Shown here: positions 28,501 to 31,500 of the stretch, piece by piece | Numbering within the stretch: position 1 is the stretch's first letter | Layout: the number at the start of each line of letters is the position of its first letter | Origin: Escherichia coli | GTDB taxonomy: Bacteria; Pseudomonadota; Gammaproteobacteria; Enterobacterales; Enterobacteriaceae | Assembly (NCBI RefSeq): GCF_017348835.2 | Contig: NZ_CP071375.1 | Length of the DNA: 64,000 nucleotides | Reading direction: 5' to 3' (one strand) | Program-made: the position numbers

Positions 28501-31500
28501 GTCAGCAACAGCGACATCATCCGGATAAACGCAGTGCCCGTGCGCAGCACGATGACTGGCTGAAGAAAGAGATACAGCGCGTATACGATGAAAATCACCA
28601 GGTATACGGTGTGCGTAAAGTCTGGCGTCAGTTGTTACGGGAAGGTATCAGAGTGGCCAGATGCACTGTGGCACGTCTCATGGCAGTTATGGGACTTGCC
28701 GGTGTTCTCCGGGGTAAAAAGGTCCGCACTACCGTCAGCCGGAAAGCCGTTGCCGCATGCGACCGCGTAAACCGTCAGTTCGTGGCAGAACGTCCAGACC
28801 AGTTGTGGGTGGCTGATTTTACCTGGGTAAGCACATGGCAGGGCTTCGTTTATGTGGCGTTCATCATTGATGTGTTCGCCGGATACATCGTGGGATGGCA
28901 GGTCTCATCATCCATGGAAACAACATTCGTGCTGGATGCACTGGAGCAGGCGTTGTGGGCCCGTCGGCCGTCCGGCACAATCCATCACAGTGATAAAGGT
29001 TCTCAGTATGTATCGCTGGCCTACACGCAGCGGCTTAAGGAAGCCGGATTACTGGCATCAACAGGGAGTACTGGCGACTCGTATGACAACGCGATGGCTG
29101 AGAGCATCAATGGTCTTTACAAAGCGGAGGTAATACACCGTAAGAGCTGGAAAAACCGGACAGAAGTGGAACTGGCCACACTCACGTGGGTGGACTGGTA
29201 TAACAATCGACGATTGCTGGAAAGGCTGGGCCATATTCCTCCGGCAGAAGCAGAAAAAGCTTATTATGCTTCCATCGGAAATAATGATCTGGCAGCCTGA
29301 GTTCACAGATAAAACACTCTCCAGGAAACCCGGGGCGGTTCACCACTGGGATTTTGGCGCAACTTCATGGTGCAGAGGTAAATAGCATCAAGCAAAATCT
29401 CTTTTTCCGTTGTTGTCCTTATGGGACGTCTGTCTTTCTGACCGATTTCATATTGGCGAGGTAATGGGAAGTTAAGTAGAATAGCTGCGGGTGCTTGAGG
29501 CTATCTGCCTCGGGCATGAACACCAACGGCAGATAGAGAAAAGCCCCAGTTAACATTACGCGTCCTGCAAGACGCTTAACATTAATCTGAGGCTCAATCT
29601 ATGAACGGCAAATCTAGGTTAGCCTCTTACGTGCCGAAAGGCAAGGAGATGTATGGGTCCACCACATATTGCAATTTTTATTCTCTTTTAAAATATATTC
29701 CACGGGCGTCATTAGTGCGAGCGCCTTGTGGGGTCTTTTGCTGTTATACAGCACCAGATATTCCGCCAGCTTCTGGTTAAATAGCGCCAGATCTTCAAAG
29801 AGTAAAATCTCATTAAATTCAATAAACTGCTCTCTTAACGTCCGGTTAAAACGTTCACAGATAGCGTTCATTTTTGGCGTGTAGGGATAGGTCCAGAGGT
29901 GTTTGATAGCGGCTTCCTGCAGCGTTTTGTCGAAGTTTCCCAGGAACTCTTTTCCGTTATCTGTGATTATCTGGCTGATACCGACCGGGAACAACCGGGC
30001 TGCGCGGCTGAAGAAGTGATTGACGATATCACTGTTGAGTGACGGCACAGCCAGCGCCAGCGCGTAATTGCTGCATTCGTCGATCATGGTGATGACATAG
30101 CGACGCAGTTCGCCCATTCTGAGCTCAATGGCGTCCATCCCAATGAGCTCACCTGTCTTTACCGGGCGGTAGTGCTTTGGCCTGCGGGGTTTGGCAGACC
30201 GCTTTTTGACAAGCAGTGCCTTCCCCCGCGATCCCAGACGCACAGGTATCATCCGCATTTTATCATGTGCGGCAGCGATCATTCTGCCGATGGTGGAAAC
30301 ACTCGGACAGGCCAGATAGCGCTGTTCGCACCAGGGCTTCAGGCGAACAAAAATCTGCTCTTTACCGAGGTTCGGCAGCTCTGTCCTGAGGCGTCGAATC
30401 TCTTTCAGCACATCGGGATGCCAGTGTTTTTTTCGTCGCACCAGAGGTGCCTTACTGTGCGGGATTAGCCCCTCAGGTCCTTCCTTGTTCAGTAACTGAC
30501 GCCACCAGTAAAGCGTGCGGCAGGACACGCCAAAGGCTTCAGAAGCTGCAGAAATACCGTGTTTATCCCAGAAGTGCAGAGCCTTCATTCTCATTGTTGC
30601 TATATCAGCCATCACTGAAAGCCTCAACGCATAATCGGCCGTTTGGTAGTACTTAGGATAGCCAACCATCAGATGCTGCATTTGCATAGTGCAATCTCCC
30701 CTTACTTATCCGGAGGCAATTGCAATATCTCTGTGAACTTACACAGGAGAAGCAGGCTATGAAGCAGCAAAAGGCGATGTTAATCGCCCTGATCGTCATC
30801 TGTTTAACCGTCATAGTGACGGCACTGGTAACGAGGAAAGACCTCTGCGAGGTACGAGTCCGAACCGGCCAGACGGAGGTCGCTGTCTTCACAGCTTACG
30901 AACCTGAGGAGTAAGAGACCTGGCGGGGGAGAAATCCCTCGCCACCTCTGATGAATCAGGCATCCTCAACGCACCCGCACTTAACCCGCTTCGGCGGGTT
31001 TTGTTTTTTCCTGGCATTCTGGTTTACAATTCGCACGCCAGCCTGAACAACTGGCACCTGCTGCGCCAGCAGAGACAACCGATGGCGCACGATACCAAAT
31101 TATACAATTCTGATGATTCTGCCGTCTTTGCCAGCAGGCGCGGACGGTGTTTTCACGCATTCAAATCTGACTGGTACCAGCATCCCCCATGCACTGAAGA
31201 ACAGGCCGAATGGCTCATTCAGTGTTACCGCAGGCGCGGATGCGAGGTTAAAAAAGCCCTTAGCCTCGACTACCGTCACTGGATAATCTCCGTCAGGCTC
31301 CCTTACTCCGAACGGCCACCGCGTCCGTCCCGCACATTCCAGCAACGGATCTGGAGGTAATGTGCGGGTATTACTTCGACCTGTTCTGGTACCGGAACTC
31401 GGTCTGGTTATCGTTAAGCCAGGCCGTGAATCCATGCGGGTATTTCATGGCGGCAGGGTGCTGGTGGAGTCTGAACCGAAAAGCATGCGTAATCTGCCGT

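Follow-up and report, generated by a model that had tools for sequence, protein, structure and literature searches.

An IS481-family element splits a complete hokD-type hok/sok locus of Escherichia coli at what appears to be the upstream edge of the Sok promoter

The hok/sok system of plasmid R1 comprises a hok mRNA promoter, a tac element, the mok reading frame, a Sok target region, an antisense Sok RNA whose promoter lies by the hok Shine-Dalgarno sequence, an fbi element and a terminator (RF01794; PMC9841398). In R1, Sok acts at the mok translation-initiation region, translation of mok at least as far as the hok Shine-Dalgarno sequence is mandatory for Hok synthesis, and toxicity disappears when mok lacks its start codon or acquires stop codons ahead of hok (PMC9841398). 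Here we describe a locus of this type in a stretch of 64,000 nucleotides (nt) of Escherichia coli DNA (RefSeq assembly GCF_017348835.2, contig NZ_CP071375.1; the whole stretch is called the window, and positions refer to it unless another contig is named). It belongs to a lambdoid prophage and is of the hokD type, with all the parts of a hok/sok system present, but it has been split by an insertion sequence (IS) of the IS481 family. The parts are those known from R1, but in the window they are separated by 1.1 kb of IS, and the mok frame, which in R1 is not that of hok, coincides with it in the hokD type.

An IS-disabled hok is already a known type of locus, and in E. coli K-12 hokA and hokE have reportedly been inactivated by IS150/IS186. 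In the account that PMC7232551 gives of Pedersen & Gerdes 1999, hok loci of K-12 are disabled by IS elements, point mutations or rearrangement. IS186 is found downstream of gef/hokC, where it disrupts fbi (PMC3562002). The present locus resembles hokA, hokC (gef) and hokE in being a chromosomal or prophage hok with an intact toxin open reading frame (ORF) and an IS close to but outside the frame. However, it differs from these cases in the family of the element, in its position, in its recurrence and in having an identifiable cause: at gef/hokC the IS is downstream, whereas in the window an element of the IS481 family, located in the Shine-Dalgarno sequence with its end 13 nt from the start codon, keeps the entire leader apart from the toxin gene, and it is found repeatedly at one and the same nucleotide.

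The left part of the locus holds the promoter and leader of hok and the predicted Sok gene. The hok mRNA promoter (TTGGCG-18-TAGAAT, plus strand, 29453-29482) is the only sigma-70-like match in 29343-31060, is 100% identical to that of intact loci and lies 7 nt 5' of the point at which the Rfam match to the sok/hok leader starts. This match (RF01794, sok; 29489-29655) scored 102 bits against a gathering score of 59; the family models the sense-strand hok leader and ends at the hok AUG, and its last ~10 positions are here aligned spuriously onto the end of the IS. The leader itself (plus strand, 29489-29649), which includes the Sok target region, ends at 29649, where the IS interrupts it; it is 100% identical to that of intact loci and, in the intact allele L004, is contiguous with hok. 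Within it we located tac (plus, 29489-29500), the mok Shine-Dalgarno sequence GAGG (plus, 29591-29594) and the mok ATG (plus, 29601), which now opens a truncated mok' ORF (plus, 29601-29780) of 16 native codons followed by the antisense strand of the IS. The minus strand carries a candidate Sok antitoxin RNA (29535-29609, with predicted ends) consisting of a 5' tail antisense to the mok start, a long hairpin and a U-rich tail, and its minus-strand fold has a computed energy of -34.5 kcal/mol. Upstream of this RNA lies what we take, by its position and by its homology to the Sok promoter of R1, to be the Sok promoter (minus, 29616-29644), with a -35 hexamer TTGCCT (29644-29639), a 17-nt spacer and a -10 hexamer TAACCT (29621-29616); this geometry is that of the RdlD promoter, whose RNA has its 5' end 7 nt past the -10 hexamer. 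In hokD-type loci (L004 3259-3471; window 29601) the mok ATG is in frame with hok and 57 nt upstream of it, and translation from mok in an intact locus would yield a Hok protein of 70 amino acids with an N-terminal extension.

To the right of the IS, the hokD-type toxin ORF (plus, 30759-30914) encodes 51 amino acids, of which 50 are identical to K-12 HokD, and matches the NCBIfam Hok subfamily with E = 6e-13, which falls below the curated cut-off. It is followed by an fbi element (plus, 30964-30976) complementary to tac, with which it could form a duplex of 12 pairs (-21.5 kcal/mol), and by the intrinsic terminator of the hok mRNA (plus, 30983-31010). Rfam also gave a sub-threshold match to isrK (30923-31004; 27 bits, gathering score 50) in the stretch that contains the hok 3' untranslated region, fbi and the terminator; we rejected an isrK identity for this segment, which is probably just the hok 3' untranslated region with its terminator hairpin.

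The interrupting element occupies 1,096 bp (29650-30745, minus strand). It has TGT...ACA termini and imperfect inverted repeats of 27 and 28 nt that start with TGT, namely IRR at the transposase 3' end (29650-29676) and IRL at the opposite end (30718-30745), its inverted ends being TGTATGGGTCC... and ...GGAACTTACACA. At the left junction ...GGCAAGGAGA is joined to TGTATGGGTCC..., and at the right junction ...GAACTTACACA is joined to GGAGAAGCAGGCTATG. The target-site duplication is GGAGA: its left copy (29645-29649) is the Shine-Dalgarno sequence of hok, and through the right copy (30746-30750) hok keeps one. The transposase ORF (minus, 29614-30687) encodes a DDE-type protein of 357 amino acids in a single frame without frameshift, with an N-terminal helix-turn-helix (HTH), the Pfam domains rve, rve_3, HTH_32 and HTH_28, and DDE residues discernible in GMDAI, TDNGKEF and CERFNRTLR. 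Against the NCBIfam IS481 model it scored 221.5 bits, just under the curated cut-off of 224, and against the IS3 model only 98 bits. The ORF has no stop codon inside the IS, and its last 11 codons and stop come from the hok leader and the Sok promoter. Comparison of copies showed that the C-terminal tails of the transposase vary with the insertion site, and these site-dependent tails may be behind the naming of copies by the PGAP annotation either as 'IS481 family transposase' or as 'integrase core domain-containing protein'.

This element is a genuine, active IS and not a backbone gene. A 100% identical 1,096-bp copy is present beside cvi on the ColV plasmid pUTME-10-1, with its own duplication GAGTG; identical copies are found at unrelated sites (hok, ldr, zor, cvi and others), and 5-bp duplications were observed at at least 10 sites. 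The IS was detected at ≥80% coverage in 1,072 of 5,426 E. coli genomes and in up to 38 places per genome. When the empty site was rebuilt by removing the IS and one GGAGA, that is, by joining 29343-29649 to 30751-31010, the resulting 567 nt were found uninterrupted and 100% identical over their whole length in no fewer than 24 of the E. coli genomes; with a coverage threshold of 80%, the empty site was present in 2,614 of the 5,426.

The original prediction, made from the window sequence without database searches, had described an IS481-like transposase inserted upstream of an intact hokD-like toxin gene, with about 70 bp between the start codons. Its outline stands: the ATG of the transposase (30687; ORF 29614-30687) and that of hok (30759; ORF 30759-30914) are 71 nt apart, the toxin ORF is intact, and the inverted repeats, the GGAGA duplication, the identical copy and the empty site confirm an insertion into a hok locus rather than a gene of the prophage backbone. 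Comparison with other copies, which it had proposed for defining the IS ends, fixed them at 29650 and 30745 by the identical plasmid copy, and the space between the IS end and hok, where an intact mok/sok region would have spoken against it, contains only 13 nt. By contrast, the idea that the IS occupies the place of the mok/sok leader has to be given up, as the promoter, tac, the mok start, the Sok target and the Sok gene are all complete at 29453-29649, to the left of the IS and within the very stretch (29343-30917) to which the prediction referred. The analogy that it drew with the relB-relE-hokD operon fails too, since in the intact ancestral allele L004 the leader is joined directly to hok, and relBE was never here.

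What the insertion probably does to the locus can be read from this layout. The 1,096 bp of the IS break the contiguity of hok with its leader and mok on a single mRNA. The hok ORF keeps the right-hand GGAGA as a Shine-Dalgarno sequence 8 nt from its ATG, together with fbi and the terminator, and it is separated from the promoter, tac/ucb, the coupling to mok and the Sok target. We consider that hok is most probably silent at this locus, because the promoter, the mok coupling and the tac/ucb switch have been cut off from the ORF and mok' stops at 29780, 979 nt short of the hok ATG. The predicted minus-strand Sok promoter (29644-29616) and the RNA with its hairpin and U-tail (~29609-29535) are left intact by the IS, and Sok is most probably still made.

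The same arrangement is not confined to the window. We found the IS next to hokD in ~54 complete genomes, and for a closer comparison we used 18 complete copies at the hokD site, which came from metagenomes and viral contigs as well as from genomes. All 18 have the same junctions and the same orientation, and they are distributed over 15 flank haplotypes. The IS of the window type (0-1 differences in 1,096 nt) is present in at least seven left-flank haplotypes, with polymorphisms that approach the IS to within 18 nt on its left side (-18) and 12 nt on its right side (+12), and a second IS variant, with 26 differences, also occurs in more than one haplotype. The two variants (0 and 26 differences) share one flank haplotype. 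For two of the flank haplotypes there are IS-less twins, 100% identical over 567 and 477 nt. A single insertion or its spread by recombination would require crossovers within 11-17 nt of homology, and repeated independent insertion is therefore the economical reading, under which the insertion point at hokD would be a hot spot that has been hit repeatedly.

The same geometry recurs at other insertion sites, many of which were found by scanning viral, genome and metagenome contigs for the ends of the IS. An ldr toxin gene has an identical copy 13 nt ahead of its ATG, with the orientation and spacing seen at hok, and in six further Hok-family genes (confirmed with NCBIfam) the IRL end is located 3-15 nt upstream of the ATG; one more copy (L040) is within the 5' end of a further hok-like ORF. 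Copies were also found by Ldr genes, in zorO loci and beside a DinQ-like toxin gene. When the flanks on the IRR side are read on the transposase strand they take the form of the 5-bp duplication followed by TTGnnn-N17-TAnnnT. Thus at hokD the duplication (read on this strand as TCTCC) is followed by TTGCCT and TAACCT as the -35 and -10 hexamers, at ldr CTGTG by TTGTAA and TATTCT, at zor CTGAA by TTGCAA and TATAAT, at cvi CACTC by TTGACT and TATCGT, at L053 CGCTT by TTGACG and TATATA, at the malS-avtA site (L147) CCGAT by TTGCAC and TATTGT, and at the dinQ-like site (L148) GCTGT by TTGAAT and TATAAT. Among 26 clustered IRR-side flanks, TTG occupies positions 6-8 in 13 (background 1.5%, p = 2e-17), TAnnnT occupies positions 29-34 in 10 (p = 2.5e-13) and both are present in six (p = 4e-17), while 18 have a G at the position of the extended -10. 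As a control we took the IRL side, and in its 37 clusters there was no TTG at 6-8, only one TAnnnT at 29-34 and no informative position.

Several of these matches coincide with starts of transcripts or genes. The RdlD RNA (Rfam, 83.7 bits) has its 5' end 41 nt from the IS end, 7 nt past the predicted -10 hexamer; OrzO-P starts 48 nt from the IS end; the cvi-cvaC operon is downstream of TTGACT-N17-TATCGT, and avtA starts downstream of its own motif. The motif matches thus appear to correspond to real promoters, including those of Sok, RdlD, OrzO, cvi and an AgrB-like antitoxin RNA. This last one is at the dinQ-like site (L148 234-560), where we noted a DinQ-family ORF of 51 amino acids and, flanking the IS left and right, a GCTAGATGAGGACTG box that is repeated; the boxes suggest an AgrB-like antitoxin RNA whose putative promoter, TTGAAT-N17-TATAAT, was the target of the insertion.

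The open 3' end of the transposase gene offers another view of the target, as with TTG at target positions 6-8 the third tail codon becomes Cys, Trp or stop. In transposase tails from a protein collection this codon was Cys or stop in 6/7, as expected for TG at positions 7-8. In three sites retrieved by means of their tails, a hexamer resembling a -10 element stands at the expected distance (TTGCAC-N17-TATTGT, TTGAAT-N17-TATAAT and TTGTAA-N17-GATGAT); they had been chosen for a third residue Cys or stop, so that TG at 7-8 was guaranteed beforehand.

Taken together, these results show that an active IS481-family element has inserted into a complete hokD-type hok/sok locus and duplicated the hok Shine-Dalgarno sequence GGAGA. 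In our explanation, these 5 bp at the same time directly precede the -35 hexamer of Sok. The element would choose the upstream edge of promoters of the sigma-70 type, where it would integrate between about -40 and -36 with respect to the transcription start, with its transposase gene co-oriented with the promoter; its location in the hok Shine-Dalgarno sequence would follow because what it targets is the upstream edge of the Sok promoter. In type I loci the promoter of the antitoxin RNA stands back-to-back with the ribosome-binding site of the toxin, and it is from this arrangement that the IS would land between the two, sparing the antitoxin and disconnecting the toxin; such an insertion should be harmless or even useful to the host, which would help it to persist. 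For this explanation as a whole, that is, a promoter-edge insertion into hok/sok that leaves the leader intact and disconnects hok, we estimate a probability of about 0.8. The target is probably chosen either through promoter-bound RNA polymerase or by direct reading of the -35 and -10 hexamers by the transposase. As the conserved positions (the TTG of the -35 hexamer, the G of the extended -10, the TA...T of the -10 and the 17-nt spacing) are those that sigma-70 reads, recognition of the holoenzyme is favoured. A broader proposal is that the IS and its 75-80% identical relatives form a lineage that integrates precisely at the upstream edge of sigma-70 promoters, probably by recognising the holoenzyme, that it is a recurrent disruptor of hok, ldr, zor and dinQ-like loci which spares the antitoxin, and that the relBE-hokD junction of K-12 may be a relic of it; we regard this proposal as evenly poised between being right and wrong.

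Some points weigh against our explanation. The site sample came from patterns of IS ends, mostly in E. coli, prophage and metagenome contigs, and is not a full census. The -10 hexamer proposed for Sok, TAACCT, fits the consensus at only three of six positions and was not called by the promoter scan, and the assignment of this promoter leans on homology with R1. The flanks that do not fit the motif are mostly copies without a duplication, which we read as rearranged later, or old relics of 93% identity, but one site with a clean duplication (L059) carries only a weak motif. Targeting mediated by RNA polymerase and direct recognition of the DNA are not separated by the data. Part of the excess of insertions at toxin-antitoxin loci may come from selection for inactivating the toxin. 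Lastly, hok retains its Shine-Dalgarno sequence and its 3' elements, and it could still be expressed by weak transcription out of the IS or by transcripts that start at the hok promoter and read through the element.

This last point leads to the possibility that the duplicated Shine-Dalgarno sequence frees hok from control by mok and Sok, and that transcription derived from the IS or reading through it makes a tolerated or conditional toxin. In its favour, hok keeps GGAGA 8 nt from its ATG, its ORF was intact in every allele examined and no plus-strand terminator was predicted inside the IS. However, no outward promoter facing hok was predicted at the IRL end at the threshold of the promoter scan, the IS end is able to pair with GGAGA in a local hairpin, and 979 nt of untranslated RNA running against the transcription of the transposase should be prone to Rho termination. 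Furthermore, unregulated chromosomal hok is lethal in E. coli (PMC9841398), and yet the allele persists in many lineages. We consider such a rewiring unlikely. The original prediction had offered a silenced toxin or one under altered control as alternatives: hok is very probably uncoupled from its normal control, and as to the outcome we infer silence rather than rewiring. It could also be argued that the excess of insertions near type I toxins results from selection for toxin inactivation, as proposed for IS150/IS186 at the hok loci of K-12, and not from target choice, and it is true that hok loci of K-12 and E. coli B have members of other IS families in their vicinity (PMC7232551; PMC3562002). 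Selection, though, cannot yield the same nucleotide, the same orientation and a 5-bp duplication that exactly abuts a TTG-N19-G-N-TAnnnT motif; the geometry is the same at the non-toxin promoters of cvi, avtA and STnc100, and insertions within the 156-nt hok ORF, which would be equally inactivating, are almost absent from the sample. As a sole cause it is decidedly unlikely.

A different objection is that one ancient insertion at hokD has spread by descent and prophage recombination, or that the interior of the IS has been homogenised by gene conversion, without any targeting. Prophages do recombine freely, IS variants with 0 and 26 differences do sit in the same flank haplotype, and gene conversion is possible among the copies of a multi-copy genome. 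Against this, the homology left between -18 and +12 in the at least seven haplotypes carrying an identical IS is too little for crossovers, two haplotypes have exact IS-less twins, and one insertion cannot give the promoter-edge geometry that recurs at the unrelated ldr, zor, dinQ-like, cvi and avtA sites; hence we find this account very improbable. As for the idea that the transposase-like gene is an original, domesticated gene of the prophage backbone beside hok, it could draw on the presence of the gene at the same place in ~54 genomes and on the purifying selection acting on it, as IS variants differing by 26 nt (21 of them synonymous) give a ratio of nonsynonymous to synonymous substitution rates (dN/dS) of 0.055 for the transposase. 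It is refuted by the terminal inverted repeats, the 5-bp duplication, the precise empty site in thousands of genomes, and the identical copies elsewhere, both on plasmids and in many places of the chromosome (as many as 38 in one genome), and we give it practically no credence.

Other readings of the target were tried and rejected. The 5-bp duplication has no sequence specificity beyond a weak purine bias (GGAGA, GGAGG, CACAG, GTGCT, CTTTG, TTCAG, GAGTG, AAGCG, CCGAT, GCTGT). Mimicry of the element's own inverted repeat does not match in geometry, the TTGCAA of the repeat being 20 nt from the tip and the TTG of the target 5 nt from the cut. The supply of a stop codon for the open transposase ORF was discarded as the cause of the motif, as the stops are at variable distances. 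Large metagenome groups, with the right flanks GGGTGGGCTTACCG and CAGGTGTAATCAAT, were uninformative, since they are relic fragments of 43-670 nt beside other IS elements. On the IS itself, the IRR end (29650-29700) holds a TTGCAA-N17-AATATA reading inward, antisense to the 3' end of the transposase gene, and ATATTGCAATT is present in both inverted repeats; possible roles are the binding of the transposase or that of an antisense promoter inside the element.

Further observations concern relatives and neighbours of the element. A relative 75% identical to the IS is located 12 nt from the start of a match to the Rfam small RNA STnc100 (L024 4989-5222 and L115 165-398, both viral contigs), with the flank GAGTA TTGAAA-N17-TAAATT, and ~17 viral contigs share this site or a homologous one. 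In L110, reading the right flank by eye, a copy apparently interrupts the 3' end of a type II toxin gene resembling HigB, and an antitoxin ORF resembling HigA follows just downstream. In the window, the ORF listing of 28800-31500 begins with an IS3-family element, which is followed by ~300 nt without coding sequence, the minus-strand ORF of 357 amino acids and the plus-strand ORF of 51. The first of these is an IS629-like element (28033-29342; 1,310 bp, duplication CCA; orfA 28087-28413, orfB 28413-29300) located ~110 nt 5' of the hok promoter; it has no effect on the sequence of this promoter and is absent from intact loci such as L004. In L004 the neighbours are as in the window, with an alpha/beta hydrolase, hok/sok, DUF968, RusA and Q.

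To judge from the open-access literature, in which we found no description either of an IS in the Shine-Dalgarno sequence of hokD or of promoter-edge targeting by an IS481-family or other IS, such targeting is probably new, with the reservation that most subscription journals and ISfinder are outside that scope. What is annotated as 'hokD' next to a transposase is here a complete hok/sok locus cut at its Shine-Dalgarno sequence, which is relevant to the counting of functional toxin-antitoxin systems in prophages of pathogenic E. coli. The targeting rule is the most interesting part of this work and is directly testable: it predicts that transcription starts ~41 nt outside the end of the IS and that the third tail residue is Cys, Trp or a stop, both of which can be checked in any genome. 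If it is true, it would explain mechanistically why IS elements have long been noticed at hok loci, would account for a class of recurrent insertions by the promoters of small RNAs and antitoxins, and would make the IS a natural probe for active promoters or for complexes of RNA polymerase with DNA.

Turning to the systems that come closest, the relB-relE-hokD operon of the Qin prophage of K-12 resembles the present locus in its Hok protein (50/51 amino acids), in a 3' region that is 97.7% identical and includes fbi and the terminator, and in having no leader directly upstream of hok. It differs in that relBE is upstream of hok in K-12, whereas the window has the IS, then the hok leader, and no relBE. 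The homology of K-12 to intact hok/sok loci starts exactly at AGGAGA, the point of insertion of the IS in the window, and comparison of the relE-hokD spacer of MG1655 (L005, reverse strand) with 30743-30750 shows that the preceding ACA coincides with the IS terminus. A search of the Qin prophage for remnants of the leader or of the IS found none. The K-12 relBE-hokD junction may be the relic of an event at the same hot spot.

Insertions of IS5 upstream of flhDC, fucAO and bgl have been related to local DNA structure and to selection for activation, and their position is variable (PMC11894529 and others). Both elements are found repeatedly in regions upstream of promoters; unlike IS5, the IS described here has an exact register to the -35 hexamer and a fixed orientation. 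Within its own family (IS481, IS1002, ISKpn28) it shares the single DDE ORF with an N-terminal HTH, the TGT...ACA ends, the short duplication and an ORF extending as far as the terminus or beyond it, and it is ~75% identical to ISKpn28. However, the target of IS481 is NCTAGN, whereas that of our element would be the upstream edge of a sigma-70 promoter. Promoter-directed integration is known from the retrotransposons Ty3 and Ty1 of budding yeast and Tf1 of fission yeast, which, as we propose for the element in the window, integrate at a fixed short distance upstream of the transcription start, at positions that avoid coding sequence; this would fit a reading of the transcription machinery or of the site that it occupies. 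The present case differs in that it concerns a bacterial DDE insertion sequence and a sigma-70 promoter; if our reading is correct, a promoter-reading IS would be the bacterial counterpart of these promoter-directed yeast retrotransposons.

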